Sequence record: MW822008.1
Strand: one strand, 5' to 3'
Source: Escherichia phage BF17
DNA length: 64,000 nt
Shown here: piece by piece, positions 12,788 to 26,911 of the stretch
How the letters are laid out: each line of letters begins with the position of its first letter
Position numbering within the stretch: the stretch's first letter is position 1
Position numbers and translations under genes: made by a program
The notes under the pieces: generated by a model
Seen by the model: the letters and a program-made list of their open reading frames with translations, nothing else
Databases searched by the model: none
What the model was told of the DNA's origin: nothing

Positions 12788-12814
12788 TATTAATTTAATA
12801 GAGGATAACAATAA

Positions 12815-13138: not shown

Positions 13139-13144
13139 AAACTA

Positions 13145-13172: not shown

Positions 13173-13221
13173 AAGTTACATGAAGGGGAGAAATGATTCT
13201 CCCCACTGAGAGGAAAGAAAA

Positions 13222-13434: not shown

Positions 13435-13451
13435 TATAAGGAGTACAGCTT

Positions 13452-13714: not shown

Positions 13715-13860
13715 AAGAATTCTTATTCGAAGTAGTGTTTCAAGGTGTCGGTAGTAACCAACTGATTCGCTCAAGTGGTTATAATGTTAACCAGGCATGG
13801 AATAACATTAAACAAATGTACCCGAACGCTATCACCTATCGCAACCCGAAAGAAGTTTAA
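13711..13860 (+). CDS. small protein (49 aa)
   Basis: ATGA overlap with upstream stop; RBS GAGG. Confidence 0.45.
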   Translation: MKEFLFEVVFQGVGSNQLIRSSGYNVNQAWNNIKQMYPNAITYRNPKEV

Positions 13861-13873
13861 AAATATTTGAAAA

Positions 13874-13952
13874 AGGGATTGACTCCGGTCAGTCCCTTTG
13901 CTATTATATACGCATAGAAACAAATCAGCCCACAGGGTGCATAAATGTATCT
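13874..13952 (+). promoter_or_regulatory. Composite module: bidirectional terminator-like hairpin overlapping promoter plus conserved element AGCCCACAGGGTGCATAAATGTATC
   Basis: hairpin GGGATTGACtccgGTCAGTCCC 13875-13896, TTGACT 13878-13883, element 13927-13952; Chi GCTGGTGG 13960-13967 just downstream. Confidence 0.55.
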
Positions 13953-13998
13953 ATTGTTTGCTGGTGGCTAGTACTGAAAACTATTTTTAAAAAAGTAC

Positions 13999-14026
13999 TT
14001 GCATTGTACTTAGAATCAAGTATAAT
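13999..14026 (+). promoter_or_regulatory. sigma70 promoter P1 (TTGCAT-16-TATAAT)
   Basis: TTGCAT 13999-14004, TATAAT 14021-14026. Confidence 0.65.
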
Positions 14027-14030
14027 GTTT

Positions 14031-14114
14031 TACATCAGGACGGGGAACGAAACAAGTAACCCCGTTAAGTAGTCCAGGAGTAAGACATAAGAAAACCTCC
14101 CCTGATAAAATAGT
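14031..14114 (+). ncRNA. Conserved structured leader / candidate small RNA (copy 2)
   Basis: about 85% identical to 3722-3806; stem CGGGG...CCCCG one base pair shorter on both arms. Confidence 0.4.
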
Positions 14115-14142
14115 TTGACAATAGAAAGTAAACGAGTATAAT
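14115..14142 (+). promoter_or_regulatory. sigma70 promoter P2 (TTGACA-16-TATAAT)
   Basis: TTGACA 14115-14120, TATAAT 14137-14142. Confidence 0.65.
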
Positions 14143-14175
14143 ACTTACATCAACCACTGATAAGGAAACATTAAA

Positions 14176-14451
14176 ATGCGGATTCTACTGACAGCTAACG
14201 AAATCGAACAAGTACTGACTACTAACCTGGAAGACTGGAAACGTGAAGCAGATATCCAGGCGGTTCAACTGCTTAACGATAAGTTAACGCCGGATGACTT
14301 AAGCAAGATTGTAGATCCTCAATTCTACGAAGATATCCACGACACCGCGTTAAGCGTCGAGGATGTACTAGATAAGCACTACATTGATATTGATTTGCAG
14401 GTTTACGGTCGTAAAAACTTTATCACTATTCACGACATTTATAATAATTAA
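14176..14451 (+). CDS. hypothetical acidic protein (91 aa)
   Basis: ORF track; RBS AAGGAAA. Confidence 0.75.
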   Translation: MRILLTANEIEQVLTTNLEDWKREADIQAVQLLNDKLTPDDLSKIVDPQFYEDIHDTALSVEDVLDKHYIDIDLQVYGRKNFITIHDIYNN

Positions 14452-14454
14452 GTA

Positions 14455-14482
14455 TTGACAAAGTATCTTAGTACTGTATAAT
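14455..14482 (+). promoter_or_regulatory. sigma70 promoter with 5' stem-loop
   Basis: TTGACA 14455-14460, TATAAT 14477-14482, hairpin GGGGGAAtggTTCCCCTCC. Confidence 0.7.
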
Positions 14483-14537
14483 AGTTTACATCGAGAGGGG
14501 GAATGGTTCCCCTCCTAACAAAGAGAGAGAAATAAAA

Positions 14538-14720
14538 ATGGCTAAATGCACTATCTGCAAGAAAGAAATAGTATTAGTTCCAAGTGCCCGTGAACGTGCC
14601 GCTCGGTTCGGTGGCAAAGCGTCAGACTATACAAAAATGTTTACTACCCATGCAGCTTGCCAGGTAGCAAAACGTTCACAAGAAAGCGTAGAATTAATGC
14701 GTAAACTTTCCAAAAAATAA
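14538..14720 (+). CDS. small Cys-containing basic protein (60 aa; CTIC...ACQ)
   Basis: ORF track; RBS AGAGAGAGAAA. Confidence 0.7.
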   Translation: MAKCTICKKEIVLVPSARERAARFGGKASDYTKMFTTHAACQVAKRSQESVELMRKLSKK

Positions 14721-14723
14721 GTA

Positions 14724-14751
14724 TTGACAAAGTATCTTAGTACTGTATAAT
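14724..14751 (+). promoter_or_regulatory. sigma70 promoter with 5' stem-loop
   Basis: TTGACA 14724-14729, TATAAT 14746-14751. Confidence 0.7.
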
Positions 14752-14808
14752 AGTTTACATCAAGTGAGGGGAAACGGTTCCCCTCCTAACAAAGAGAGAG
14801 AAATAAAA

Positions 14809-15132
14809 ATGGCTATGATCCTTGCCCAGAAAGTAGAACTGAAAATTGTAACCTCCTTTGACATTAAAGTTAATCGGTGGACTGATTCACACGGCAATAC
14901 TTACCACTCTTGCTACGTGTCCGCGTTAATTGGCGACCGCTGGGAAGACTTGGGACATGAAACCTTTACTTACGGTTACGGTACACAAGGAGAATACACG
15001 GGCTTGGAGATCATTAAAGAAACCGTTATAGGTTTCAACCCGAAAGAAAAAGTTATTCACCGCATCGAAAAAGAGATTAACAAAGAAATAACAGTTCGCT
15101 ACTACGATGTAAAACGTAAGAAAGACATGTAA
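14809..15132 (+). CDS. hypothetical protein (107 aa); paralog of 8391..8714
   Basis: ATG 14809; track start 14764 lies in leader. Confidence 0.75.
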   Translation: MAMILAQKVELKIVTSFDIKVNRWTDSHGNTYHSCYVSALIGDRWEDLGHETFTYGYGTQGEYTGLEIIKETVIGFNPKEKVIHRIEKEINKEITVRYYDVKRKKDM

Positions 15133-15146
15133 TAGAATCCATTTAA

Positions 15147-15183
15147 AGTACTATTTGACATTGCCCAGATAGTACTTTATAAT
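15147..15183 (+). promoter_or_regulatory. Promoter TTGACA-17-TATAAT enclosed by palindrome AAGTACTAT...ATAGTACTT
   Basis: TTGACA 15155-15160, TATAAT 15178-15183; same architecture as 2783-2819. Confidence 0.65.
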
Positions 15184-15227
15184 AGACTCTAACTTGTAGT
15201 ACTAACTCAACTAATAGGATGTATACC

Positions 15228-15623
15228 ATGATTACTAAATTCTACGCTACCCGTGAAGCTGCCCGTATTGTTGCACGCGAGGAAGGAGCAGCATTTAAAG
15301 ACATGGGCAAAGATGCACCGAAAGGTCAACGCTGGGCCGTACAGTTCAAAGAAATCTCTGATATTGTGAATTCACCTGAGCCAGTACTAACAGCAGCAGA
15401 ACTAAAACGAGCGGATTTACTGGCGGCAGTACTTAACGCACAAGATGAATTTATCGCTGATTCTGATATCAAAGTACAGACAAACCATACCGCTTGGACT
15501 CACGCGGATCACCTGGCAAACCTTAAGCGTCCAAGTGAACTGGTTCGCAACCAGAAAGAGATCCGACACGACCGTAAGGGTAATCGTGTAACAGTATACA
15601 GTAAACGCCGCCAGGTTATCTAA
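15228..15623 (+). CDS. hypothetical protein (131 aa); paralog of 2856..3122
   Basis: ATG 15228 with RBS AGGA 15215-15218. Confidence 0.75.
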   Translation: MITKFYATREAARIVAREEGAAFKDMGKDAPKGQRWAVQFKEISDIVNSPEPVLTAAELKRADLLAAVLNAQDEFIADSDIKVQTNHTAWTHADHLANLKRPSELVRNQKEIRHDRKGNRVTVYSKRRQVI

Positions 15624-15643
15624 TAACTTGCAGTACTAACAAC

Positions 15644-15671
15644 ACGGCGGGATCAGTTCCCGCCTTTTTTA
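15644..15671 (+). terminator. Rho-independent terminator
   Basis: hairpin GGCGGGatcagttCCCGCC then TTTTTT. Confidence 0.75.
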
Positions 15672-15685
15672 TAGGATAAACTAAA

Positions 15686-15940
15686 ATGATTAAGGTACAA
15701 CTATCTAAAGATAATATCTTGCGGGTACACTATAAAGCACCACAGAGAATCATCACAAAGGCCGTACAGCTTGCTAATGAGTTTATTAATGGTAACCTAT
15801 TACCAAGGAAGTTAAGCAACGGAAAACTGCGTGTAATCGATGTAGACACTAACAACAGAATAGTAATTGAGAACACAGGAAAGATAAACCTATATGAACA
15901 CCAACAATATAATAAGAAAATAAAACTAATATCACGTTGA
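15686..15940 (+). CDS. hypothetical basic protein (84 aa)
   Basis: ORF track; RBS AGGA. Confidence 0.65.
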   Translation: MIKVQLSKDNILRVHYKAPQRIITKAVQLANEFINGNLLPRKLSNGKLRVIDVDTNNRIVIENTGKINLYEHQQYNKKIKLISR

Positions 15941-15965
15941 CAGTACTCAATTGTTTTAGTATTAT
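15937..15965 (+). promoter_or_regulatory. sigma70 promoter (TTGACA-17-TATTAT); duplicated cassette with 16213-16241
   Basis: TTGACA 15937-15942, TATTAT 15960-15965; leader TACACATACCAACACGGG shared. Confidence 0.6.
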
Positions 15966-15993
15966 GTACACATACCAACACGGGAGAAACAAA

Positions 15994-16212
15994 ATGAAAT
16001 TATCTAAAATCGAAAAGAAAACTATTGATGAAGCAGTTAAGCACGGTTATACCTTTCGTAATGATTCACATTTTACCAATTTTCAACAAGGCCAAAGGAC
16101 TATTAAAAAACTAATTGACAAAGGTTTATTAGTTAAAGTAGATAACGGTAACGGCATTGAGTATCAGCCAACCCAAGACGCATTATCTTTAAAGAAATAT
16201 GCAATTATCTAA
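15994..16212 (+). CDS. hypothetical protein (72 aa)
   Basis: ATG 15994; track start 15937 is the TTG of the -35. Confidence 0.7.
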   Translation: MKLSKIEKKTIDEAVKHGYTFRNDSHFTNFQQGQRTIKKLIDKGLLVKVDNGNGIEYQPTQDALSLKKYAII

Positions 16213-16241
16213 TTGACAGTACTCAAATGTTTTAGTACTAT
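16213..16241 (+). promoter_or_regulatory. sigma70 promoter (TTGACA-17-TACTAT)
   Basis: TTGACA 16213-16218, TACTAT 16236-16241. Confidence 0.6.
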
Positions 16242-16269
16242 ATGTACATACCAACACGGGGAAAACAAA

Positions 16270-16512
16270 ATGATTACTTTAGAAAAACGTATCAAAGAAA
16301 CTACATCGCTGGTGGAACTGTTAACAGTACTGAAATGCCGTACTACTCGGTTTAGTACACCGGACTTTATTAATATGGTTGATGTTAACGGTCGTTATCG
16401 CATTGCAGTAGAACATGGAACAGCGAAAGTATTCAGTACTAAAAACACTAAGGAAGTGATTCACGCGGTTAGTGTGAAAAAAGTGGTTGCCATTGATAGT
16501 AAAGTACTGTAA
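16270..16512 (+). CDS. hypothetical protein (80 aa)
   Basis: ATG 16270, RBS GGGGAAAA. Confidence 0.7.
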   Translation: MITLEKRIKETTSLVELLTVLKCRTTRFSTPDFINMVDVNGRYRIAVEHGTAKVFSTKNTKEVIHAVSVKKVVAIDSKVL

Positions 16513-16543
16513 GATAGTTTCATTAACTCAAGGAGAACATGCA

Positions 16544-17128
16544 ATGCGTAATTATACTAAATTCATCCGTACCCTGTCAGAAATGGAAACCAACAAAGAG
16601 ATCCTTTCAGCTTGTCGGTTAGCTGGTCTGGAGATCATCGGTGCGGGTTCTTCCCGTATTGTATTCGCTTTAAATGATCGGTTAGTGATTAAGGTCGCCA
16701 ATTGTGATGCGGGTGTAGAACAAAATGAAACTGAATGTAAGGTATGGAATTTTTTAGACTATGACCGCCCTCAATTGAAACAGTACTTTGCAAAGGTGCA
16801 TATGCATTTATGCGATCCTGATAATATGTTTATCGTTATGGATCGGTTGAGTACTGCAAGCAAAGGCAGTGTAAAGCACGTTAACGCGTGCAACGAATTA
16901 AAGTACAATATTAAACGTAATGCCATTGAACGCCAGCACCGCTTTGCTGATGCACTACAACACGTCGATGATACATTATCAACACTAACGATAAGAGATA
17001 TCAGAAAACAGAATATCGGCCAGGATCGTAATGGACTTATTAAAGTACTTGATTACGGTTTAACCCGCAATATCTGGAATCAGTACTATAAAAAGCGTGA
17101 TGTGGCAGCAAGTAAAGTAACACGATAA
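16544..17128 (+). CDS. putative small atypical protein kinase (194 aa) with Hanks-like catalytic motifs
   Basis: IIGAGSSRIVF (Gly-rich loop), VIKV (Lys), IRDIRKQNIG (cf. HRDxKxxN), VLDYGL (cf. DFG); ATG 16544 with RBS AAGGAG. Confidence 0.55.
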   Translation: MRNYTKFIRTLSEMETNKEILSACRLAGLEIIGAGSSRIVFALNDRLVIKVANCDAGVEQNETECKVWNFLDYDRPQLKQYFAKVHMHLCDPDNMFIVMDRLSTASKGSVKHVNACNELKYNIKRNAIERQHRFADALQHVDDTLSTLTIRDIRKQNIGQDRNGLIKVLDYGLTRNIWNQYYKKRDVAASKVTR

Positions 17129-17141
17129 AAAAGATTAAAAA

Positions 17142-17225
17142 AGGGATTGATTTCGGTCAGTCCCTTTGCTATTATATATTCATTGAGAGATAGCTCACTG
17201 ACCCACAGGGTGCATAAATGTATCT
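17142..17225 (+). promoter_or_regulatory. Composite module: terminator-like hairpin overlapping promoter plus conserved element ACCCACAGGGTGCATAAATGTATC
   Basis: hairpin GGGATTGAtttcgGTCAGTCCC 17143-17165; element 17201-17225. Confidence 0.55.
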
Positions 17226-17268
17226 ATTATATAAGTATTCAGTACTGAAAACTATTTTTAAAAAGTAC

Positions 17269-17296
17269 TTGCATTGTACTTAGAATCAAGTATAAT
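17269..17296 (+). promoter_or_regulatory. sigma70 promoter with 5' stem-loop
   Basis: TTGCAT 17269-17274, TATAAT 17291-17296. Confidence 0.7.
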
Positions 17297-17351
17297 GTTT
17301 TATATCGAGAGGGGGGGAACGGTTCTCCCTCAAAGAATAAGGAATAAAATC

Positions 17352-17573
17352 ATGACTACAATGACTTGCATTTACGCTTCCAATCTTCTGAATGATGCGG
17401 CCTTTAATGTTGATTCAGAATATCAATGTTATCGGGATGAAAATAAAAAAGTTTTTGTAGTTGATAATAATGGTTTCCATATTGAAATACAATCCGGCTT
17501 CACTGGTGTTGATGGTAAATCAGTATGGGGCGTACAGGATGATAACGGTACATATCATTTTAAACGTAATTAA
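17352..17573 (+). CDS. hypothetical protein (73 aa)
   Basis: ATG 17352, RBS AAGGAA. Confidence 0.75.
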   Translation: MTTMTCIYASNLLNDAAFNVDSEYQCYRDENKKVFVVDNNGFHIEIQSGFTGVDGKSVWGVQDDNGTYHFKRN

Positions 17574-17576
17574 GTA

Positions 17577-17604
17577 TTGACAAAGTATCTTAGTACTGTA
17601 TAAT
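17577..17604 (+). promoter_or_regulatory. sigma70 promoter with 5' stem-loop
   Basis: TTGACA 17577-17582, TATAAT 17599-17604. Confidence 0.7.
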
Positions 17605-17657
17605 AGTTTACATCAAGGGGAGAATAGTTCTCCCCGATACTAAAAGGAAACAAAATT

Positions 17658-17930
17658 ATGTCCAGCTACTCCGCTACTATGATCATTAAAGATATGAACG
17701 GTAATCCTACTTCCGCTGGTGGATCATTTGGAAACATTAATTTAGATGGTCGGTTATCCATGCAATCAGCCATCGATGCAGCGAAAGAAGTTTTTAAGAA
17801 TGAATGCACTGTAAGCAAGCTGGATTATATGGGATTCGCTATCGAGAAAACTAATCGTTTTGTGAACTACAAAAATCCACTGATGATTGATACTAACCTG
17901 AAAGCTAACGAAGTGGAATACTTATTATGA
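17658..17930 (+). CDS. hypothetical protein (90 aa)
   Basis: ORF track; RBS AAGGAAA. Confidence 0.75.
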   Translation: MSSYSATMIIKDMNGNPTSAGGSFGNINLDGRLSMQSAIDAAKEVFKNECTVSKLDYMGFAIEKTNRFVNYKNPLMIDTNLKANEVEYLL

Positions 17931-18118
17931 CAGTTGAAGAAGTTAAAAAAGTACTGGCAGTACTACGCTATCATAATCATTGCAAGGTGAAGAATGATCC
18001 TGATTATGTTGATTCATCCCTGGAGGAAGACACATTAAACGCAATAAGCCATATGCAAACATTAGCAAAGCGTATGACCGAAAAGAATAGACCGGACTAT
18101 ATCGGAAATAAAATTTAA
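17927..18118 (+). CDS. hypothetical protein (63 aa)
   Basis: ATGA start/stop overlap with 17658 gene. Confidence 0.6.
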   Translation: MTVEEVKKVLAVLRYHNHCKVKNDPDYVDSSLEEDTLNAISHMQTLAKRMTEKNRPDYIGNKI

Positions 18119-18125
18119 AAAGTAC

Positions 18126-18153
18126 TTGCATTGTAGTTAGATTAACGTATAAT
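18126..18153 (+). promoter_or_regulatory. sigma70 promoter with 5' stem-loop
   Basis: TTGCAT 18126-18131, TATAAT 18148-18153, hairpin GCGGGGGAAtagtTCTCCCGCC. Confidence 0.7.
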
Positions 18154-18204
18154 GTTTTACATAGAGCGGGGGAATAGTTCTCCCGCCAGTCCAGGAGATA
18201 CACC

Positions 18205-18468
18205 ATGAACACTATCGAAATCACTATCAATGCACACGTATACGACAACGTAGTACTGCAAACTACTATGACCGCTAACGATACCAGTACTTTGCGGAAT
18301 ACTGTTATTAGTGCCGTATGTGCCGCTATCGGTGATGTCGCCCTGGAAAATGCAAAACACGTAAACGATGGTTTCACTATGTGCAAACGTGATAACGCAA
18401 AACATATCATCGTGGAAGGTTACGGCGGTGTAGAATTTAATGTTTATATGAAAAAAGTACTTGCATAA
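18205..18468 (+). CDS. hypothetical protein (87 aa)
   Basis: ORF track; RBS CAGGAG; 3' end overlaps next promoter -35. Confidence 0.7.
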   Translation: MNTIEITINAHVYDNVVLQTTMTANDTSTLRNTVISAVCAAIGDVALENAKHVNDGFTMCKRDNAKHIIVEGYGGVEFNVYMKKVLA

Positions 18469-18488
18469 TAACTAAAACAAAGTATAAT
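18461..18488 (+). promoter_or_regulatory. sigma70 promoter with 5' stem-loop
   Basis: TTGCAT 18461-18466, TATAAT 18483-18488. Confidence 0.7.
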
Positions 18489-18535
18489 GTTTTGCATAGG
18501 GGGAGATGTCCTCCCCCACTAAAAGGAGTAATAAA

Positions 18536-18760
18536 ATGGCTAACTTTGATGAACTGATGCGGGAAGTAGCTAACCTGGCAGAAGAGAAAAAATCATTCGA
18601 TTCTATCTATAACACCTCTTACCGTGATTCAGTACTGGCATGTAACCAGGATCAAAAAGATGAACTAATCGCCACCTATCATGAAGCATGGAAGTACTAC
18701 CGACAATGGGAGAAAGAAGAAAGAGAGTCTACCATTGACGGCCTCAATAATCTAATCTAA
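18536..18760 (+). CDS. hypothetical protein (75 aa)
   Basis: ATG 18536, RBS AAAGGAG. Confidence 0.75.
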   Translation: MANFDELMREVANLAEEKKSFDSIYNTSYRDSVLACNQDQKDELIATYHEAWKYYRQWEKEERESTIDGLNNLI

Positions 18761-18773
18761 AAGTTTTATTTCA

Positions 18774-18808
18774 GTACTATTGACATAGCTTGATAGTACT
18801 GATGTAAT
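18774..18808 (+). promoter_or_regulatory. Palindromic promoter cassette (copy 5, diverged -10)
   Basis: AGTACTAT-TGACATAGCTTG-ATAGTACT; TTGACA 18780-18785. Confidence 0.6.
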
Positions 18809-18836
18809 AACTTTACTAACTACAAGGGGAAACATC

Positions 18837-19094
18837 ATGGAACAATTCACACAATATCGGGTAAATCCTCAAGCTATGGCCTACGTAGAAGACCATAAAA
18901 CGTTACCAGTACTGCAACCAGTTAAAGGCCATATCTATCGTGCAATGTCGTGGAGTACGGCCCAGGATGGCTATAAAACCGTAGCCGTTGGTATGTACTG
19001 CGGTAATGGTGAATGGTTTGATCCAAATAATCCGGTAGCCATTGACAGTACTGAAAAAATGAAATGGGCCGACTACATCGAAGATATTTCATAA
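18837..19094 (+). CDS. hypothetical protein (85 aa)
   Basis: ORF track; RBS AAGGGGAAA. Confidence 0.7.
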   Translation: MEQFTQYRVNPQAMAYVEDHKTLPVLQPVKGHIYRAMSWSTAQDGYKTVAVGMYCGNGEWFDPNNPVAIDSTEKMKWADYIEDIS

Positions 19095-19107
19095 AAAGAA
19101 TAAAAAA

Positions 19108-19187
19108 AAGGAGTTGACTTCGGTCCGCTCCTTTAGTACTATATACGCATAGAAACAAATCAGCCCACAGGGTGCATAAGTGTATCC
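19108..19187 (+). promoter_or_regulatory. Composite module: terminator-like hairpin overlapping promoter plus conserved element AGCCCACAGGGTGCATAAGTGTATC
   Basis: hairpin about 19109-19133; element 19162-19187; Chi GCTGGTGG 19222-19229 downstream. Confidence 0.55.
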
Positions 19188-19254
19188 AAAATATATAGTT
19201 AATAACGGTGAGTAACTATCTGCTGGTGGAACTAAAACTATTAATAAAAAAGTA

Positions 19255-19283
19255 TTGACAAAGTATATCAGTACTGCAATAAT
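19255..19283 (+). promoter_or_regulatory. sigma70-like promoter (TTGACA-17-AATAAT)
   Basis: TTGACA 19255-19260; GC-rich leader hairpin. Confidence 0.55.
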
Positions 19284-19336
19284 GTATCTCGTAGGGCGGC
19301 AATGGTGCGACGGCCCACAAAGTTAGGAGATTCAAA

Positions 19337-19669
19337 ATGAGTACTTCAATCGCTATCGTTAAAGCTTTCATCCGTACCAATGTTTCATCTGTATTCATCG
19401 ACGGTCTGGATCGGGAAGTAGAATACTCAATCATTATCGCACAGACTGCAAACGGTGCTCGGTATATCCTTAATGATAGTGAAGCAAATCACTACTACTT
19501 CACTAAAGCTACTGGCTTTAAACGCATCGATGCTGATGTAGTATACGCTAAGATGAATAAGCTGGTAGACAAGATTAACGCTAAAGGTACTATAGATTTA
19601 CAGTACTGGACCGAAACCGATCCAGAATATGGATCTCACCGCTACCTGAATCCAGGTATTAAAATGTAA
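19337..19669 (+). CDS. hypothetical protein (110 aa)
   Basis: ORF track; RBS AGGAG. Confidence 0.75.
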   Translation: MSTSIAIVKAFIRTNVSSVFIDGLDREVEYSIIIAQTANGARYILNDSEANHYYFTKATGFKRIDADVVYAKMNKLVDKINAKGTIDLQYWTETDPEYGSHRYLNPGIKM

Positions 19670-19676
19670 AAAGTAC

Positions 19677-19704
19677 TTGCATAGTACTTAGAATCAAGTA
19701 TAAT
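19677..19704 (+). promoter_or_regulatory. sigma70 promoter with 5' stem-loop
   Basis: TTGCAT 19677-19682, TATAAT 19699-19704, hairpin GGGGGAAatggTTCTCCCTCC. Confidence 0.7.
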
Positions 19705-19758
19705 GTTTTACATAGAGAGGGGGAAATGGTTCTCCCTCCTAAATTAAGGAGTTTTATC

Positions 19759-20160
19759 ATGACCTTCTCAATCAATTCCTTCGCTGACGTTTTAGTACTG
19801 GCTCGGACTTTCGGTAAAGATGCACTGGAGTACGCTGTAAGTAATGGCACTATCCAACCGGAACAGTGCCGCATCATTGGAAACTGCAAACGTTGGGCGG
19901 TATCCAATACTATTGCACTGGAAAACTTCCACGATGGCAACAATGAATATTCTGTTGATGTAGTATTCGAAGCCGTTGATCTCGGCGGTATCTATAATAC
20001 TAACCTGAATGATGTGCGTATCGTTCGCACGGGGTTCGGTGCTTATGATGTATCTATCCGTGAAGCTATGGACAACGGATACATTAGCAAGGACTTACTT
20101 GCTCACATCATGCAGCTGTGTACGGAACGTAACGAAGCACGCACTATCTTAGGACTGTAA
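19759..20160 (+). CDS. hypothetical protein (133 aa)
   Basis: ATG 19759, RBS AAGGAG. Confidence 0.75.
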   Translation: MTFSINSFADVLVLARTFGKDALEYAVSNGTIQPEQCRIIGNCKRWAVSNTIALENFHDGNNEYSVDVVFEAVDLGGIYNTNLNDVRIVRTGFGAYDVSIREAMDNGYISKDLLAHIMQLCTERNEARTILGL

Positions 20161-20228
20161 GCGTTACACATCACCAAACATCATAGGCCGCCTTGTAGCG
20201 GCCTTAACTATATCAGGAGTACATACAT

Positions 20229-20438
20229 ATGTTCTATACAGTATACAGCGTTCTAGGTACTATTGCAGGCGTACATGATAACGTCAATGATGCTATGCGT
20301 ACAGTACTGCAACAGGTTCCACTAAAGCCTAAGACCATTAAGCAGATGACAGCACGACTAACCAGGGCGACCGATGGCGTGGAAGTATGGCAGGACTACG
20401 GGGATACACAGATAATCGTTAGCGTAACGAAGGATTAA
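20229..20438 (+). CDS. hypothetical protein (69 aa)
   Basis: ORF track; RBS CAGGAG; GC-rich hairpin upstream. Confidence 0.65.
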   Translation: MFYTVYSVLGTIAGVHDNVNDAMRTVLQQVPLKPKTIKQMTARLTRATDGVEVWQDYGDTQIIVSVTKD

Positions 20439-20439
20439 T

Positions 20440-20720
20440 GCGTAAAGGGATCTAGTACTGATTCAGAAAAAAGTCAAGGCGTTTTTAAAATTATGCGTTA
20501 AAAAAATGCATAGGTAATCCCTTGACTTTTTTGAAATAAAAGGGATTGGACTATGGCAAAATGCGTAGGGGGCTAAAGGGCGGGTAACCTTTAGCGACTT
20601 CGAAAAAAGGAGTGATAGGGGCTTGACTTTTTATATAATTCTGATAATATATAGTCTATATTATATTTCATTCATATTTTATATGTTAGTTACATTAACT
20701 CAACTTTAGAGGTCACCGAA
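20440..20720. other. Intergenic boundary between moderate-GC early module and AT-rich paralog-array module
   Basis: three YTTGACTTTTT copies in alternating orientation; GC-rich GGGGGCTAAAGGGCGGG; promoter/RBS style changes after this point. Confidence 0.5.
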
Positions 20721-20722
20721 CT

Positions 20723-21088
20723 ATGAATCCATCATCTAATAAATGTGGTACTTCCTTTAATGTAGAATGGTTGTTTTTTAAACCTACATCTACTATAAAA
20801 TCATTCATTGCTGATATCACTGAAGCACCTGACACCCTTGTATCAGTTGTTAGCAACAATAACGAAATGGTATTTTCTATTGATGAAAATCAATATGCAG
20901 ATATCTATTCATTGATTCGTATAAAAAACTTAGTTGTACTGTCCGAGAAAGCGTTCGCAAAAGAAGCGAAGAAATGGGATTTTAAACTTCCTATTGAATT
21001 GGTACGTGAAATACAAAAATTGGGATGTACTACTATTGAGAATTGTAAAGACTCACGTGCTACTGGGAATATTTCATTTGAAGTATAA
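20723..21088 (+). CDS. hypothetical protein (121 aa), first gene of AT-rich module
   Basis: ORF track; RBS AGAGG. Confidence 0.65.
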   Translation: MNPSSNKCGTSFNVEWLFFKPTSTIKSFIADITEAPDTLVSVVSNNNEMVFSIDENQYADIYSLIRIKNLVVLSEKAFAKEAKKWDFKLPIELVREIQKLGCTTIENCKDSRATGNISFEV

Positions 21089-21111
21089 TGCATTTATATG
21101 AACAAAACATC

Positions 21112-21140
21112 TTGACATCATGCCTCACATGGGGTATGAT
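21112..21140 (+). promoter_or_regulatory. sigma70-like promoter (TTGACA-17-TATGAT) at head of family A array
   Basis: TTGACA 21112-21117, TATGAT 21135-21140. Confidence 0.6.
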
Positions 21141-21174
21141 GTTTTTTCACATATGAACCTATGGATTTTATCCT

Positions 21175-21372
21175 ATGCGTATTTTAACTAAAGAACAGCA
21201 CCACGAAAGACTTATCAATAACATGGCTATGATAATGTATAAGTCCCATGACCGTGGTATTGCCTATAAGCGTGAATTAATTATGGCACTATTCATTGGA
21301 ACTAACTTTCAGGAAAGGTATGTCAACGATTGGATTTGGTATTTAATTGAAGATATAACGAGTAAACTATGA
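21175..21372 (+). CDS. family A paralog (motif FIGTNFQE)
   Basis: ORF track; about 65 aa; conserved LGTNYQE-type core. Confidence 0.65.
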   Translation: MRILTKEQHHERLINNMAMIMYKSHDRGIAYKRELIMALFIGTNFQERYVNDWIWYLIEDITSKL

Positions 21373-21569
21373 AAATGCGTATTTTAAATAAAGAAGAATA
21401 TCAATCACTGTTACGTAAAAACTTCACAAAGATTTATAATACAGACACACACGTAGAACGAATGGAGTTATACCTTTTGATTACTTTGGGAACTAACTAT
21501 CAGGAAAGATGGGTGATTCAATATATGGATACATTGAAAAATAAAATATTGTCCACGAGGAAACAATGA
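21369..21569 (+). CDS. family A paralog (TLGTNYQE)
   Basis: ATGA overlap with upstream gene. Confidence 0.65.
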   Translation: MKMRILNKEEYQSLLRKNFTKIYNTDTHVERMELYLLITLGTNYQERWVIQYMDTLKNKILSTRKQ

Positions 21570-21775
21570 AAACTATAACACGAACCCAATCATACGGTCT
21601 TATCTTGAAATACATGGACTTAATGGTGGATATCAGCAAAGACCTTCCTAAAACTGAAATTGAAGTTGCAAGAGCAGAGATCCGCATGTTGGCTGTACTG
21701 AACACAAACCATCAGGAAGATTATGTTGAAGAATGGATTCGATTTTTAATAGAAGATATAAAGAGTAAATTATGA
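21566..21775 (+). CDS. family A paralog (VLNTNHQE)
   Basis: ATGA overlap. Confidence 0.65.
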   Translation: MKTITRTQSYGLILKYMDLMVDISKDLPKTEIEVARAEIRMLAVLNTNHQEDYVEEWIRFLIEDIKSKL

Positions 21776-21987
21776 TTATTATAGAAAACTCATATCAATA
21801 TACTGAACGCATCGCTGCCAGACAACTTGAAATCCTCATAATATACGAAGAGACTTCTGATTTAAACTTAGCCGAGGTATTGGAAAATGATATACTATTG
21901 GGTGCATTCTTAGGAACAGACTATCAGAAGTATTATGAGGAAAAGTATTTGTCATCTCTTGAGAAATATATCAGGAGCAAATTATGA
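21772..21987 (+). CDS. family A paralog (FLGTDYQK)
   Basis: ATGA overlap. Confidence 0.65.
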   Translation: MIIIENSYQYTERIAARQLEILIIYEETSDLNLAEVLENDILLGAFLGTDYQKYYEEKYLSSLEKYIRSKL

Positions 21988-22196
21988 TTTTTTTAACACC
22001 AGAAGAATATAAGAAACGTTTCAATTCCGCACAGGGTGAAATCTTACTTATATACCTTTCAAATGCAGACCTTAACTTATCAAGGGTATTAGAAAAAGAT
22101 TTACTTATGGGTGCATTCCTTGATACAGACTTTCAGGTGTATTATGTAGGGGAATACTTAATTGCACTCCAGAAATACATTAAGAGCAAACTATGA
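21984..22196 (+). CDS. family A paralog (FLDTDFQV)
   Basis: ATGA overlap. Confidence 0.65.
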   Translation: MIFLTPEEYKKRFNSAQGEILLIYLSNADLNLSRVLEKDLLMGAFLDTDFQVYYVGEYLIALQKYIKSKL

Positions 22197-22411
22197 AACA
22201 TTTAAGTAATTACGAGAAGAATAAAATTATCGTTGCTGCAATAAACAAATATTTTACACTTCCTCACACAGAAGGTTTATGTGTAAGGGAACACAGGATA
22301 AACACCACCGATATACGCATGATGGCTGTACTGGGGACGAACTTTCAGGAAGAGTATGTTGTTGCACACATAGTTGCCCTCACTGATTTAATAAGGGACA
22401 AATGCAAATGA
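22193..22411 (+). CDS. family A paralog (VLGTNFQE)
   Basis: ATGA overlap. Confidence 0.65.
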   Translation: MKHLSNYEKNKIIVAAINKYFTLPHTEGLCVREHRINTTDIRMMAVLGTNFQEEYVVAHIVALTDLIRDKCK

Positions 22412-22716
22412 AACACTTAACTGATGATGAATTTGAAACTATAATTCGTAAACTAACCCCCATCACAAGGATAGTCTACGGTGACCCCAGCCTTACATGG
22501 AACCAAATGCGAGCTAAAGTTAATGAGCTATGGTTGCTGTACTTTATGGGGACTCAATATCAAGATAAGTTTTGCACAGAATATATCGAACAATTAACGA
22601 ATGTTATACAGGATAAACTAGATGATTATTTGCTCACAAAACATGAAGATTTTATCAGGAGTGGAGTATCAGACTGCCCTCTTCTCTCTTCTAAACACCC
22701 TCCGCACGAACAATAA
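22402..22716 (+). CDS. family A paralog (FMGTQYQD) with C-terminal extension
   Basis: 104 aa; 3' end overlaps next paralog by about 74 nt. Confidence 0.55.
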   Translation: MQMKHLTDDEFETIIRKLTPITRIVYGDPSLTWNQMRAKVNELWLLYFMGTQYQDKFCTEYIEQLTNVIQDKLDDYLLTKHEDFIRSGVSDCPLLSSKHPPHEQ

Positions 22717-22894
22717 ACTTTATAATTCCCGTGAAGCTGATATCGTCAACGCTGATGTATATCTTAATAAATTCATAGGGACTAACTATCAAGAACTGTT
22801 CACTCTACGATATATCGCTGCATTGAGAAACGAAATATCAGATAAAACCCGTCAAGCCAGAAGAGAATGGAATAAACAATGCGACACAGACTAA
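22643..22894 (+). CDS. family A paralog (FIGTNYQE)
   Basis: internal ATG 22643 of ORF 22622. Confidence 0.55.
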   Translation: MKILSGVEYQTALFSLLNTLRTNNKLYNSREADIVNADVYLNKFIGTNYQELFTLRYIAALRNEISDKTRQARREWNKQCDTD

Positions 22895-23130
22895 ATCACA
22901 AAATGTATTGTAAACTATTACAGACACTGGCACAGAAACACTATGACACTGTATCTGAAATATTACCCTATGATATCATGCGTTTAATTCATAGTGAGGC
23001 AGAGATGCTTGTACTGATGACAGGCACTGATAAAAAAGCAATTGCCAAATCAATAGATATGTTCATCGAAGCACAATGTCAACACATTAGAACCGAGATA
23101 TGGAGACGAGAGAATGATAACACTAAATGA
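22879..23130 (+). CDS. family A paralog, divergent (LMTGTDKK)
   Basis: ORF track; position in array. Confidence 0.55.
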   Translation: MRHRLNHKMYCKLLQTLAQKHYDTVSEILPYDIMRLIHSEAEMLVLMTGTDKKAIAKSIDMFIEAQCQHIRTEIWRRENDNTK

Positions 23131-23329
23131 GTTTCAGTATCATTGGAGGTTACAAACTATCAAATCAAAAGTGTATAGTATTGTGTTAAACAAATCTATT
23201 GCACAAGAGGACAAATGTGTTATAATAGCTGAAATGAAGTTGGGTGCTTTCGTAGGGACAAACTATCAAAACATCTACACTGACGTATTGTTAAGTGCCT
23301 TACGTAACAAGGTGGTATCCAAAATATGA
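23114..23329 (+). CDS. family A paralog (FVGTNYQN)
   Basis: ORF track. Confidence 0.65.
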   Translation: MITLNEFQYHWRLQTIKSKVYSIVLNKSIAQEDKCVIIAEMKLGAFVGTNYQNIYTDVLLSALRNKVVSKI

Positions 23330-23544
23330 GAAATTTACAAGGCTTTGAATACATCAGACTCCTGAAAACATGCACCAGCAGAAGGAAAATCTTATCAAGC
23401 GATAAGAGCATCCAAGCTAACCTTAAGCACGCACTAGTAACTGAACTCTATGTAGGTGCACTCTTAGGCACAAACTATCAACAAATGTATGTAGATCTAT
23501 GGATTGACGCTCTACAGAAAGAGGTTAAAAGTAAATGCAAATGA
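23326..23544 (+). CDS. family A paralog (LLGTNYQQ)
   Basis: ATGA overlap. Confidence 0.65.
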   Translation: MRNLQGFEYIRLLKTCTSRRKILSSDKSIQANLKHALVTELYVGALLGTNYQQMYVDLWIDALQKEVKSKCK

Positions 23545-23753
23545 TTAATTTAAGTAAAGACGAATTTTATGTTATACTGGCGAAAACTTATCCAGCACGT
23601 AAGGCCGTTTATGATAGTCACATTATTGAACCCTCAAAGAAGTTGATTTTAGTAAATGAGATAAAGATGCTTTCAGTCTTAGGAACAAACTATCAAGAGA
23701 ATGCTGTACTGATGTTAATTGATGCCCTCCAGCGAGAGGTTAAACGTAAATGA
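23535..23753 (+). CDS. family A paralog (VLGTNYQE)
   Basis: ORF track. Confidence 0.65.
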   Translation: MQMINLSKDEFYVILAKTYPARKAVYDSHIIEPSKKLILVNEIKMLSVLGTNYQENAVLMLIDALQREVKRK

Positions 23754-23980
23754 AAATGATTAATTTAACTTACCATGAATATCAAAAACGTTTAAATGCA
23801 TCCAGAGATATAAGGATTCAAATATTCAATAACAAAAGATTGAAGCCTGATATCAGGAAAATCAAAATCATAGAAGCCGTGTTGTGCAACTTCCTAGGGA
23901 CTAACTATCAGGAAGGTAAGGTAGAAAACTATCTTATAGAACTCATGAATAGTATTGAAAATAAATGTAAGGGTAATTAA
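23750..23980 (+). CDS. family A paralog (FLGTNYQE)
   Basis: ATGA overlap. Confidence 0.65.
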   Translation: MKMINLTYHEYQKRLNASRDIRIQIFNNKRLKPDIRKIKIIEAVLCNFLGTNYQEGKVENYLIELMNSIENKCKGN

Positions 23981-23981
23981 C

Positions 23982-24221
23982 ATGAAAATGATTAAATTAT
24001 CTCAAGCAAAATATAAAGAACGCCTGGTAAAAATTGCACCTGGACTTAATGAAATCCATCACGGAGAAGTCATTAAACACGGAAATAAGATGATTATGAA
24101 ACTTGAGTTAAAGGTGGGTGCATTCATAGGAACAAACTATCAGGAGTATTATGTAGATGAATACATAATCGCACTTAAGAGATACATTGGAAGAAAACTA
24201 TATCTACAAACTAAAGAATAG
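23982..24221 (+). CDS. family A paralog (FIGTNYQE)
   Basis: internal ATG of ORF 23955; junction AAATGTAAGGGTAATTAACATG repeated at next gene. Confidence 0.6.
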   Translation: MKMIKLSQAKYKERLVKIAPGLNEIHHGEVIKHGNKMIMKLELKVGAFIGTNYQEYYVDEYIIALKRYIGRKLYLQTKE

Positions 24222-24250
24222 TATTGAAAATAAATGTAAGGGTAATTAAC

Positions 24251-24514
24251 ATGCAAATGATCAATTTAAGTAAAGATGAATATACCGAGCGTATGACAAA
24301 AATTACGCACAAACGTAATACAATCTATCACAACCCAGAAATTCAACACAGTAAGAAAATGATTATGATGCGTGAGTTAAAGATGGGTGTATTCTTAGGA
24401 ACAAACTATCAAGATACAGAAGTAAATCGCTTAATCGCGGAGTTGCTACTGGAAATCAGAGGTAAGCTGTACTTTCATCAAATGACCCAACCACTGAGGT
24501 GTACTAAGAAATGA
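24251..24514 (+). CDS. family A paralog (FLGTNYQD)
   Basis: internal ATG of ORF 24224; duplicated junction. Confidence 0.6.
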   Translation: MQMINLSKDEYTERMTKITHKRNTIYHNPEIQHSKKMIMMRELKMGVFLGTNYQDTEVNRLIAELLLEIRGKLYFHQMTQPLRCTKK

Positions 24515-24726
24515 TCAACATCACATTGCAAGAAAGATTCATCCGAATCAACTATGCAATTACCAAATTAGATGCTACTATAGGATTCCAAAGTCTACCA
24601 TACAAAACCAGATTGTTATTAGAGTGTGAAGCTAAGTTGGGTGTACTATTAGGGACGCAACACCAACAACGATATGTGGAAATCTGGATTGATCTTTTAA
24701 CCCAGGATGTACATGAGAGAATGTAA
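24511..24726 (+). CDS. family A paralog (LLGTQHQQ)
   Basis: ATGA overlap. Confidence 0.65.
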   Translation: MINITLQERFIRINYAITKLDATIGFQSLPYKTRLLLECEAKLGVLLGTQHQQRYVEIWIDLLTQDVHERM

Positions 24727-24981
24727 ATGCAAAATGAAATGATATACTTAACCTATAATGAATACGTCGAGAGATTAGTTCGTGCCAAGAGATATACCAA
24801 TAAACGTCCAATTGACCTAAACCAAACCCCTGCCGAAAGGAGTGCAGAAGTTTTATTCCAATCACTACCATACCTTCTTGGAACTGATAGACAAGAGGAA
24901 TATGTTGCACGTATGATTAGATATCTTAAAATCACTATTAAGGAAAAAGTAAATGCAAATGAAATACTTAACAGACGATGA
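24727..24981 (+). CDS. family A paralog (LLGTDRQE)
   Basis: ORF track. Confidence 0.65.
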   Translation: MQNEMIYLTYNEYVERLVRAKRYTNKRPIDLNQTPAERSAEVLFQSLPYLLGTDRQEEYVARMIRYLKITIKEKVNANEILNRR

Positions 24982-25204
24982 GTTAAAAGAACGACTAATT
25001 AAATCCAGAAAACTTACAAATCAACTTCCAAACGACACAAACAAGTCACATGCCGAAAGGAGTGCAGAAGTTTTATACATTCAACTCATGTACTTTCTTG
25101 GCACTGACAGACAAGAGTATTACATTGAAAGTATGCTTCGATATCTTAAATTCTCTATAAAGGAAAAGATACATGCTCAAGAATTTAAAAATCCTAACAG
25201 TTAA
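24953..25204 (+). CDS. family A paralog (FLGTDRQE)
   Basis: ORF track; close paralog of 24727 gene (HAERSAEVL shared). Confidence 0.65.
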   Translation: MQMKYLTDDELKERLIKSRKLTNQLPNDTNKSHAERSAEVLYIQLMYFLGTDRQEYYIESMLRYLKFSIKEKIHAQEFKNPNS

Positions 25205-25415
25205 TGAATATCATACGATTGTAATGAAAACTAATAGTGCAATTTCTAAAAAATCAAACCCCAAGTACATACTGGAACACACATTCGAAGAACGTCAATT
25301 AGCTTTAGTTGAAGCAAAACTTCTTGCACTCCTAGGAACAAACTATCAGGAAGAATACATCAGAAAACTAATATACCTTTTAACTAAACATATAAGAAAA
25401 AGAAAAAATGCATGA
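25173..25415 (+). CDS. family A paralog (LLGTNYQE)
   Basis: ORF track. Confidence 0.65.
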   Translation: MLKNLKILTVNEYHTIVMKTNSAISKKSNPKYILEHTFEERQLALVEAKLLALLGTNYQEEYIRKLIYLLTKHIRKRKNA

Positions 25416-25642
25416 AACACTTGACAGATGATGAACATGGACTTATAGTAATGGATGTAATCAACATCGAATACAAAAAGTTGATACGCTACCGTTGTTA
25501 TGAAGATAAGCAACTCGTTCTAGCAGAACAGAAGTTGTTTCGACTCTTAAACACAAACTTCCAAGCACAATACGAAGAATCGTATATGTACCTTTTGGCG
25601 AGGAAAGCAAAAAGAGATTATGAAAATTTTAAGCAAAGGTGA
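25412..25642 (+). CDS. family A paralog (LLNTNFQA)
   Basis: ATGA overlap. Confidence 0.65.
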   Translation: MKHLTDDEHGLIVMDVINIEYKKLIRYRCYEDKQLVLAEQKLFRLLNTNFQAQYEESYMYLLARKAKRDYENFKQR

Positions 25643-25841
25643 TTCAGTAATATTACTTATAGAGAGTTCAAGTAAATTCTTAAACATAACACTGTCTGAT
25701 ATAGATGAAGATGACAAAGAAGTACTGAGAGCAGATTTAAGAGTACTGTTACATATCGGAACAAACCTACAAGAAGAATATGTAGAGTGCTACATTAATG
25801 AACTTAAAGAATCAGTACTGAGAAAATGCAAATGCAAATGA
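25620..25841 (+). CDS. family A paralog (HIGTNLQE)
   Basis: ORF track. Confidence 0.65.
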   Translation: MKILSKGDSVILLIESSSKFLNITLSDIDEDDKEVLRADLRVLLHIGTNLQEEYVECYINELKESVLRKCKCK

Positions 25842-26065
25842 AAATCATTTCACCCACAGAATACAACCAACTATTAAGTAGTTTAATTCTAAAGCTGTTT
25901 ATAACAAAAAGCATGAAATTACCAGATGATGAAATAAGTATTCTAGTAAGTGAAATCTATGTTCAAGCTACACTAGGGACTAACTATCAAGAATGCAATA
26001 TTAATGATTACATCAATGAACTAAAAAGGTTTATCCAATGCAAATGCGAATCATTACCGAAGTAG
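25826..26065 (+). CDS. family A paralog (TLGTNYQE)
   Basis: ORF track. Confidence 0.65.
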   Translation: MQMQMKIISPTEYNQLLSSLILKLFITKSMKLPDDEISILVSEIYVQATLGTNYQECNINDYINELKRFIQCKCESLPK

Positions 26066-26280
26066 AATACCTAACAATCATAAATGGACTGTTTTCGAAG
26101 TTATTTGCCATTAACACATCAAAACTTCCAGATTCTGATAAAATTATTAAGTTAAATGAAATCTACGTTCAAGCTACTCTAGGAACAAACTATCAAGAAG
26201 CCAATGTGTATAATTACATTAATACACTCAAAAGGGTAATACAATTAAAATGCACAGACAGCACACACACAAACCCCTAG
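26038..26280 (+). CDS. family A paralog (TLGTNYQE)
   Basis: close paralog of 25826 gene. Confidence 0.65.
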   Translation: MQMRIITEVEYLTIINGLFSKLFAINTSKLPDSDKIIKLNEIYVQATLGTNYQEANVYNYINTLKRVIQLKCTDSTHTNP

Positions 26281-26480
26281 GAACAGCAGAATACATTGAA
26301 CTAATGGCTGCAAACTTCTCATCCTTTAAGAAACTGATGCAAGAATCAAAGAATGATTTAGAATATCACATCAAAAGTTCAGATTTAAGATTGCTACTCA
26401 CTCTAGGAACAGATTCCCAAGAGCGATTTGTCAATGAGCATATTAGAGCACTTTTAAATGGCATCAGGAATAAACTATGA
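26250..26480 (+). CDS. family A paralog (TLGTDSQE)
   Basis: ORF track. Confidence 0.6.
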   Translation: MHRQHTHKPLGTAEYIELMAANFSSFKKLMQESKNDLEYHIKSSDLRLLLTLGTDSQERFVNEHIRALLNGIRNKL

Positions 26481-26693
26481 AGGAAATATCAAATCAAGAG
26501 TACTTGGCACTATTCAGGAAGAATAATCACAAATATATGGCACTTGATTCAAGAACTGATATAAGTGAACTTGAAAAAAAATCTTTTGCGTTCAGAGATG
26601 ATAGTACTGACACTCTTAGGAACACAGCATCAAGAGAGAACTGTTAATTCACACATAGGGATTCTTATGCAGATAGTTCAGGAAAAGATATGA
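26477..26693 (+). pseudogene. family A paralog disrupted by +1 frameshift at an A8 homopolymer
   Basis: N-terminal frame MKEISNQEYLALF... stops at 26645-26647; the C-terminal ...MIVLTLLGTQHQERTVNSHIGILMQIVQEKI is in the +1 frame; A-run 26574-26581. Confidence 0.6.
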
Positions 26694-26911
26694 GAATCAT
26701 AACACAACAAGATATTCTTAAGTTCACAAGGGTTCATGCATCTGAATTTGATGCTATATTATCAAAAAGTTACAACAACCCTTATACACAAGATGTACAT
26801 TACAGTGAATTATGGATGTATATACTTTTAGGTACAAATAAGCAAGAGCAAGCCGTACAGAAGTATTTGACAGCTTTACGTGATGCTACTGCTAATGGAG
26901 TATGTGTTTAA
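26690..26911 (+). CDS. family A paralog (LLGTNKQE)
   Basis: ORF track. Confidence 0.65.
   Translation: MRIITQQDILKFTRVHASEFDAILSKSYNNPYTQDVHYSELWMYILLGTNKQEQAVQKYLTALRDATANGVCV

Follow-up and report, generated by a model that had tools for sequence, protein, structure and literature searches.

The stretch analysed here comprises 64,000 nucleotides of Escherichia phage BF17 (sequence record MW822008.1), referred to throughout as the window, and the region under study is a junction at 20440-20720 where two modules of different composition and gene layout meet. The junction follows the stop codon of a small plus-strand gene (20229..20438), which encodes a 69-aa protein of phrog_17833 with no assigned function, and its non-coding stretch measures 284 nt. 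Within this stretch lie three copies of the motif YTTGACTTTTT, at 20468-20478 on the minus strand and at 20521-20531 and 20622-20632 on the plus strand, which according to a motif count are the only copies in the 64 kb (0.25 expected); a plus-strand 12-mer, GATTGGACTATG (20544..20555), with a single occurrence in the window; and a GC-rich segment, GCGTAGGGGGCTAAAGGGCGGGTAACCT, at 20563-20590. We conclude, with a probability of about 0.85, that at this junction the left direct terminal repeat (DTR) of the phage genome reaches its inner (right) end, with the terminus after 20590 (...GGGCGGGTAACCT/TTAGCGAC..., where the slash, here and below, marks the cut). The repeat would in addition form an early module, and the junction would carry the signal that places the cut. 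An initial annotation had described a module boundary at this place, which is correct, without recognising the feature that defines it, namely the end of the terminal repeat; the GC-rich segment and the number and place of the three motifs that it reported are also correct, but their orientation (-,+,+) is not alternating as claimed.

Judged by its sequence, the window represents the left end of a jumbo phage genome of the genus Asteriusvirus (PBECO4/121Q-like), and the junction region is 99.6% identical to PBECO4. The first base of the window is also base 1 of the records of vB_Ec-M-J, BAU.Micro_ELP-22, CRJP21, fEgEco12 and E9.1. Four of these records (vB_Ec-M-J, E9.1, CRJP21 and fEgEco12) contain both copies of the repeat and terminate at ...GGGTAACCT/TTAGCG..., which corresponds to window position 20590, and the G17 record starts, reversed, at the base matching the same position. 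The four record ends and the G17 start lie 152 nt past the stop of the last repeat gene, and in OQ718158 a repeat_region annotated as 'Direct Terminal Repeats' (1..21525) likewise ends 152 nt after the ortholog of ORF (open reading frame) 20229-20438. The two repeat copies of fEgEco12 are identical over 20,993 bp. For Sharanji, the boundaries found by matching give 36445-15778+1 = 20,668 bp, exactly the length of its published PhageTerm repeat (PMC11895373). The shared record starts at base 1 and the record ends at 20590 thus identify window 1..20590 (+) as the left DTR copy, a GC-richer region of about 51 small, mostly unique genes that is rich in Chi and in the palindrome AGTACT. The termini are therefore fixed and sequence-specific, as seen in five record starts, four record ends, the G17 start and the Sharanji length, and the repeat is present at both ends in relatives at homologous coordinates, while the window itself holds the left copy only.

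These assignments agree with what has been published for the group. The DTRs of Asteriusvirus and RaK2-like phages are homologous in sequence, with the same left end and a right end matching 20590; those of Asteriusvirus have published or annotated lengths of 20.7-21.5 kb, including 20,993 bp in fEgEco12 (PMC13070987), 20,668 bp in Sharanji (PMC11895373) and 21,525 bp in vB_Ec-M-J, and lengths of 19,736 bp and 20,030 bp apply to fENko-Kae01 (PMC11218385) and Muenster, which represent two other genera and whose repeat ends are defined by PhageTerm. Experimental evidence for the ends comes from PhageTerm together with digests in fEgEco12 (PMC13070987) and from PhageTerm in Sharanji and fENko-Kae01 (PMC11895373, PMC11218385), and the ends of G17 are supported by read coverage (PMC6563267). 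The end of the terminal repeat as such is hence already documented for Asteriusvirus. The published accounts (PMC13070987, PMC11895373, PMC11218385) give lengths and ends only, and a limited literature search found no published account of the step in composition and layout, the clustering of Chi, the fixed-distance box or the inverted cut-site motif described below.

The change in base composition at the junction is a single step. A single-change-point likelihood scan of the window gives 38.4% GC on the left and 32.2% on the right, with the change point at 20627 (2-lnL support interval 20424-20659; log-likelihood gain 116), while extra breaks within either half bring a gain of just 6.8 and 3.8. 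In 1-kb steps GC varies between about 0.34 and 0.42 up to 21 kb and between about 0.29 and 0.36 beyond, and it drops from 0.444 at 20001-20500 to 0.324 at 20501-21000, i.e. across two adjacent 500-nt intervals, so that the abrupt boundary at about 20.5 kb proposed in the initial annotation is borne out and a gradual change is refuted. GC is higher left of 20590 at all three codon positions and also in non-coding DNA. Similar steps accompany the repeat end in the relatives, with change points at 21013 in fEgEco12 (repeat end 20993), 26201 in 121Q (26181), 19577 in fENko-Kae01 (19736; GC 37.4% to 33.2%) and 19865 in Muenster (20030; 35.9% to 28.2%), and the distance between change point and repeat end is 20-165 nt in five genomes from three genera. 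In fEgEco12 the repeat has 38.5% GC, compared with 32.1% in the 29 kb that follow it and 35.5% in the 29 kb ahead of the right-hand copy, and GC rises again in a step where that copy begins.

Gene layout differs equally between the two sides. The DNA left of 20590 carries 51 ORFs, separated by a median of 84 nt, of which 4% overlap or abut, and is 66% coding; on the right the median gap between the 109 ORFs is -4 nt, 69% of them overlap or abut, and 97% of the DNA is coding. Paralogs within the window are found for six of the 51 ORFs on the left and for 46 of the 109 on the right. In fENko-Kae01 and Muenster, too, spaced single genes give way to tighter, largely overlapping genes at the repeat end, and arrays like those of the window follow the repeat end in fEgEco12, 121Q and vB_Ec-M-J. 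Promoters were scanned in window 1-20000 (left) and 20591-40590 (right). Matches resembling sigma-70 promoters are enriched on the left (109 against 67 expected), where ten perfect TTGACA-16/17-TATAAT sites occur on the plus strand along with many near-perfect ones, and not on the right (109 against 116 expected, no perfect site); a promoter contrast across the repeat end was counted in fENko-Kae01 as well. The left part also has 23 terminator-like hairpins (12 expected) and combines strong sigma-70-like promoters with stem-loops between small genes, the arrangement known as the PeSL cassette, with three stem-loops in which a -35 element is embedded (10266, 13872 and 17140). The initial annotation was therefore right in assigning mostly unique small genes and PeSL-type promoters to the left, and long overlapping-gene arrays, paralog families and a relative lack of promoters to the right. 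The passage from a stand-alone, promoter-rich repeat to polycistronic overlapping arrays would explain why composition and layout change so sharply. Codon usage follows the same division: the codon adaptation index to E. coli, calculated with the values of Sharp and Li, is 0.343 for repeat genes and 0.213 for the others (p = 4e-15), which suggests that repeat genes are nearer in codon usage to E. coli genes of high expression.

Chi sites (GCTGGTGG), which had previously been noted on the left side, are indeed concentrated there: the window contains 11 where 0.42 are expected, ten of them left of 20590, and comparison with the ORF coordinates puts seven of the ten repeat sites in non-coding DNA. 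Over-representation of Chi in terminally repeated DNA was found in five genomes from three genera, with 10 sites in the repeat versus 1 in the following 43 kb in the window, 12 versus 0 in the following 29 kb in fEgEco12, 10 versus 0 in two flanks of about 6 kb each in 121Q, 14 versus 0 in the following 12 kb in fENko-Kae01 and 8 versus 0 in the following 10 kb in Muenster. Altogether, base composition, the spacing of genes, paralogy and the densities of promoters and Chi all change over within about 100 nt of 20590, and one cause, the end of the DTR, accounts for the drop in GC and the altered layout as well as for the Chi sites and the contrast in promoters.

The orientation of the Chi sites is informative as well. 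RecBCD recognises 5'-GCTGGTGG-3' on approach from its 3' side, and minus-strand sites consequently face an enzyme entering at the left end, and plus-strand sites one that comes in from the right, through the outer end of the right-hand copy. A back-to-back pair, CCACCAGC acaa GCTGGTGG (585..604), lies about 0.6 kb from the physical left end of the window and has counterparts at 578/590 (fEgEco12), 484/496 (fENko-Kae01) and, counted from the repeat start, 577/589 (121Q); Muenster lacks such a pair. The second minus-strand site of the repeat is at 7334, and the Chi sites otherwise span 7334-7403 and 11647-19229. The plus-strand site nearest the right end (19222..19229), the first of eight, lies 1.37 kb inside the repeat, its equivalent in fENko-Kae01 lies 382 nt from the repeat end, and plus-strand sites in general reach to 0.4-1.7 kb from the right end. 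Chi facing both ends suggests that the phages either depend on RecBCD at exposed termini or defend themselves against it there: end-facing sites would blunt a RecBCD attack on the linear DNA and would also favour recombination of one repeat copy with the other, as has been proposed for P1. In P1, according to a paper that cites Subramaniam and Smith 2022, Chi is clustered in or near the terminal redundancy, and RecBCD-promoted recombination between the ends was proposed (PMC12315714). Both phages have a linear virion genome whose terminally repeated DNA is strongly enriched in Chi, but P1 packages by a headful mechanism and has permuted ends, whereas the ends of the window phage are fixed, so that one can read directly how Chi is oriented towards each of them.

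The last 152 nt of the repeat contain two elements that appear to mark the terminus. The 12-mer GATTGGACTATG ends exactly 35 nt before it, at -47..-36 in the window, fEgEco12 and fENko-Kae01, and is found once per repeat copy at 11 loci in eight phages (PBECO4, vB_Ec-M-J, E9.1, CRJP21, fEgEco12, 121Q, G17 and fENko-Kae01); in Muenster only its GGACT core is kept, in an unchanged register. This box is a candidate recognition element that would place the packaging cut. The second element is the cut site itself. The GC-rich segment ends at the terminus, and the cut after 20590 (CCT/TTAGC) falls within an 8-bp inverted repeat, GCTAAAGG and CCTTTAGC (20563..20595), which spans the terminus and folds with -16.9 kcal/mol (z = -3.2); the context CT/T(T)AGC is common to the three genera. 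Read from the outside into the repeat, the motif RCTA(A)/AG is present at seven of eight junctions in three genera, inverted at the two repeat ends, and the left outside flank CAGTACTGATATGCCACTA/ is identical between Muenster and 121Q. Identity between genera over the last 152 nt is 58%, compared with 52-55% in neighbouring coding DNA and a shuffled maximum of 54%, and since this is only slightly above the surroundings, conservation is local (box and cut site) and not general. Searches of IMG/VR with two exact terminus patterns gave one match (121Q) and none, respectively, and among ten matches to the pattern box-N32-CCTT only that in 121Q was real; the remaining nine lie in unrelated contexts, which is the level expected by chance for 16 specified bases.

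On the repeat side of the box, motif copies 1 and 2 are held in a perfect 13-bp inverted repeat, AAAAAAGTCAAGG and CCTTGACTTTTTT (20467-20479 and 20520-20532, with a 40-nt spacer). As RNA it folds with -23.6 kcal/mol (z = -4.1) and is followed by a U run, and it is a candidate for a bidirectional terminator closing the last DTR gene, or for a protein-binding site; the AGTCAA...TTGACT core is preserved in fENko-Kae01 and Muenster. Copies 1 and 2 were rejected as sigma-70 promoters, as neither has an acceptable -10 element at a distance of 16-18 nt. Copy 3 is the -35 element of the first promoter of the unique region (20623..20650, +; TTGACT-16-TAATAT, with TG upstream of the -10 element), which is predicted from its consensus match and begins 33 nt outside the repeat. 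A strong promoter, TTGACT-16-TATTAT, is found at the matching place in vB_Ec-M-J, fEgEco12 and 121Q, and the equivalent in fENko-Kae01, TTGACA-17-TATACT, starts 29 nt past the repeat end. In fENko-Kae01 the ortholog of the last DTR gene of the window (38% identity, E 2e-14) is also the last gene of the DTR.

From these features a working model may be drawn. The repeat would act as an immediate-early module of some 50 stand-alone genes, each with a near-consensus sigma-70 promoter and often a stem-loop, and the host RNA polymerase would transcribe them once the DNA enters the cell, while the unique region would open with its own promoter just past the terminus and continue in long polycistronic paralog arrays with few promoters. 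The final 152 nt of the repeat would hold the terminus-fixing signal, consisting of the box 35 nt upstream of the CT/T(T)AGC cut. In T7-type concatemer processing, staggered nicks on opposite strands are combined with strand-displacement synthesis. Similarly, where the concatemer contains a single repeat copy, one asymmetric nuclease could nick one strand at its left boundary and the other strand at its right boundary, after which strand-displacement synthesis would duplicate the repeat (Watson/T7-type model). The inverted RCTA/AG at both boundaries is the arrangement expected if the staggered-nick model holds and would suit a single asymmetric nuclease, although the motif is short and the T7 repeat measures 160 bp compared with about 20.6 kb here. 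If confirmed, the fixed-distance box and the inverted cut motif would provide a testable model for how a 20-kb repeat is generated in RaK2-like jumbo phages.

The early role of the repeat is suggested by comparison with the related Pseudomonas jumbo phage PA5oct, which has a 39-kb DTR with many small genes of unassigned function that are highly transcribed early, and whose growth is rifampicin sensitive and depends on the host RNA polymerase (PMC7318152). By this analogy, and in view of the contrasts in promoters and layout, the codon adaptation index and the zinc-finger protein described below, we infer that the repeat of the window may be an early module read by the host enzyme. PA5oct has a repeat twice as long and a different host. 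As the DTR genes of PA5oct are early, the possibility that the two modules belong to different transcriptional classes, one of the options in the initial annotation, is plausible and consistent with the promoter and layout contrast as well as with the PA5oct RNA-seq data. A further likeness is to the PeSL cassettes of RB49/phi1-type T4-like phages, in which small non-essential genes each have a stem-loop and a strong sigma-70-like promoter at their flanks (PMC2839356): the window contains elements such as AAAGGGATTGACTCCGGTCAGTCCCTTT-GCTATTATAT, and some of its repeat genes have RB49-like homologs, but its cassettes fill a terminal repeat whereas those of RB49/phi1-type phages lie in internal hyperplastic regions. 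An 85-aa protein encoded in the repeat at 12260-12517 has a DksA/TraR C4 zinc finger (PF01258, E 1.6e-10) and is, from this domain match, a possible modulator of the host RNA polymerase. Apart from this zinc finger and a weak kinase match, comparison of about 20 of the 51 repeat proteins and of the junction ORFs with Pfam and PHROGs was uninformative, and since almost all scanned repeat proteins are of no known function, the gene content gives little direct support for 'host takeover'.

Several observations weigh against the assignment of the junction and the model built on it. The terminus at 20590 is assigned in this genome by homology, and the BAU.Micro_ELP-22 record (OR699282.2) ends 128 nt earlier than the others, which shows that deposited record ends are unequal in precision; its right repeat copy is apparently truncated. 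The PA5oct timing data are the sole experimental basis for calling the repeat 'early', which for Asteriusvirus is thus solely an analogy, and the higher codon adaptation index of repeat genes may just reflect higher GC at third codon positions. No counterpart of GATTGGACTATG occurs within +/-400 nt of the left boundary in four genomes. The inverted RCTA/AG is only 5-6 nt long, the left end of fENko-Kae01 reads GCTA/TA, and the recurrence of the motif across genera reflects shared ancestry and is not independent evidence. The two junction hairpins (20467-20532 and 20563-20595), stable in the window, are both unstable in fENko-Kae01 (z about 0 and -0.8), so that structure as such is probably not the conserved feature, and the hairpins were dropped as a conserved signal. 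Chi, finally, is not confined to the repeat: fEgEco12 has six minus-strand sites in the 29 kb upstream of the right repeat copy (324734-353740), all of them in minus-strand genes annotated as RCC1-like condensation proteins.

Other explanations for the junction have to be considered. It could be argued that the repeat is injected and expressed ahead of the rest of the genome, as in T5, with the inverted repeat and the box acting as a pause site. T5 resembles the window in having a long left DTR of small host-takeover genes behind strong host-type promoters, and its repeat-rich non-coding element, with a stop signal that sits in untranslated DNA of the left repeat (bioRxiv 10.1101/866236), could be compared with the conserved, repeat-rich non-coding element found here at the inner end of the repeat. 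The T5 region, however, is a large untranslated one with eight conserved DnaA boxes, whereas the non-coding stretch of the junction is just 284 nt and DnaA boxes (TTWTNCACA) are at chance level in the window (13 against 12.9 expected), with one in the repeat, none in the junction and no cluster of the T5 type. Moreover, the fixed 35-nt spacing between box and terminus is more simply explained as a packaging cut signal. An injection stop of this kind is therefore improbable, and the same holds for the idea that the AGTCAA/TTGACT pair and the GATTGGACTATG box double as a programmed DNA-entry pause besides their role as cut signal. Were it true, these 350-kb phages would, like T5, deliver a 20.6-kb repeat first and express about 50 host-takeover genes from promoters of the host type, while Chi would shield the exposed end, and the remainder of the genome would follow later. 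We regard it as even less probable that the boundary merely separates transcription classes and coincides with the repeat end by accident, the motifs being ordinary promoter and terminator elements. It is true that a good promoter has copy 3 as its -35 element, that copies 1 and 2 form a terminator-like hairpin with a U run, and that a 30-nt direct repeat resembling a duplicated promoter region takes in copies 2 and 3. Nevertheless, the close agreement between change point and an independently defined repeat end (20-165 nt) holds for five genomes and three genera, GC steps up again where the right-hand copy starts, and the spacing of the 12-nt box is fixed to the terminus and not to a gene or promoter.

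Our data also argue against the suggestion in the initial annotation that one module is a horizontally acquired block, in which case the junction would be an insertion scar. Such a block would agree with the GC difference at all three codon positions and in non-coding DNA, with the close relationship of some repeat genes to genes of unrelated phages, and with the variable presence of ORF 20723-21088. All 41 relatives that match window 19500-22000, however, span both sides of the junction, and among these records none lacks the whole 20.6-kb block or the whole array while retaining the flanks. The module order, read directly in PBECO4, vB_Ec-M-J, fEgEco12 and 121Q, is identical, as opposed to the variable presence that an acquired block predicts. 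The step recurs at the DTR end in two other genera, and fENko-Kae01 has orthologs of the last two repeat genes of Asteriusvirus (38% and 44% amino-acid identity), both of which speak against a recently acquired block. Signatures of integration were likewise not found: no Rfam family, tRNA included, reaches threshold in the whole window, and no integrase is annotated within about 3 kb of the junction in PBECO4, vB_Ec-M-J, fEgEco12 and 121Q. Exchange apparently concerns single gene cassettes instead of a whole block, and of the explanations considered we find an acquired block the most remote. Identification of the junction as the DTR end fixes the true genome ends for this sequence, and the box-plus-cut signature could be used to set the ends in deposited genomes of the group, many of which are permuted arbitrarily or have a collapsed repeat.

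At the level of single genes, the repeat shows signs of exchange with other phages. Window 2440-2774 is 79-90% identical in nucleotide sequence to about 100 rV5-like phages, and the penultimate repeat protein (144 aa, 19726-20160) has homologs with 64-67% identity in rV5-like and about 36% in RB49-like T4-type phages. Alignments of relatives to the repeat break into several pieces and show insertions and deletions. Genes held in common with unrelated phage groups suggest, from these similarities, an exchange at the level of cassettes.

Outside the repeat, similarity to many relatives ends about 20 nt past the terminus, and the 121-aa ORF directly after the repeat end (20723..21088, +) is found among database relatives only in PBECO4, which together make the first position of the unique region a variable spot; searches of Pfam and PHROG gave no match for this ORF. 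The site just outside the terminus resembles an insertion hot spot. A second predicted sigma-70-like promoter (21112..21140, +; TTGACA-17-TATGAT, 11/12 consensus) lies ahead of the AT-rich array of overlapping genes at 21175..26911 (+), whose products are about 65-104 aa long and which holds 23 of the 26 members of phrog_4148. The first member of this family starts at 21175 and the three outside the main array at 28488, 28610 and 42278; most members lie head to tail in one array with 4-nt overlaps (21175-28850). Two smaller paralog families, of 8 and 6 members, are present at 36.5-46.6 kb.

The repeat is in addition marked by short repeated words. The palindrome AGTACT occurs 252 times in the window, 135 of these in the repeat, and the longer form AGTACTGA 108 times where 2.6 are expected, often as TCAGTACTGA; its density is 11 per kb in the intergenic DNA of the repeat, and no AGTACTGA site lies between 20462 and 25720. 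Muenster has a similar bias, with 157 AGTACT in the repeat versus 25 in the next 10 kb, and fENko-Kae01 starts with several copies. A binding function or a role as promoter-spacer element is conceivable for AGTACT. The physical left end, window 1-1700, is essentially non-coding and filled with repeats: a terminal hairpin is formed by bases 5-21, GGCTAGAC-like units recur every 8 nt at 754-913, and TCAGTACTGA palindromes are numerous. Some elements, AGTACTCCATCCTAAATC for example, are also present in fENko-Kae01, where they lie at other distances from the end.

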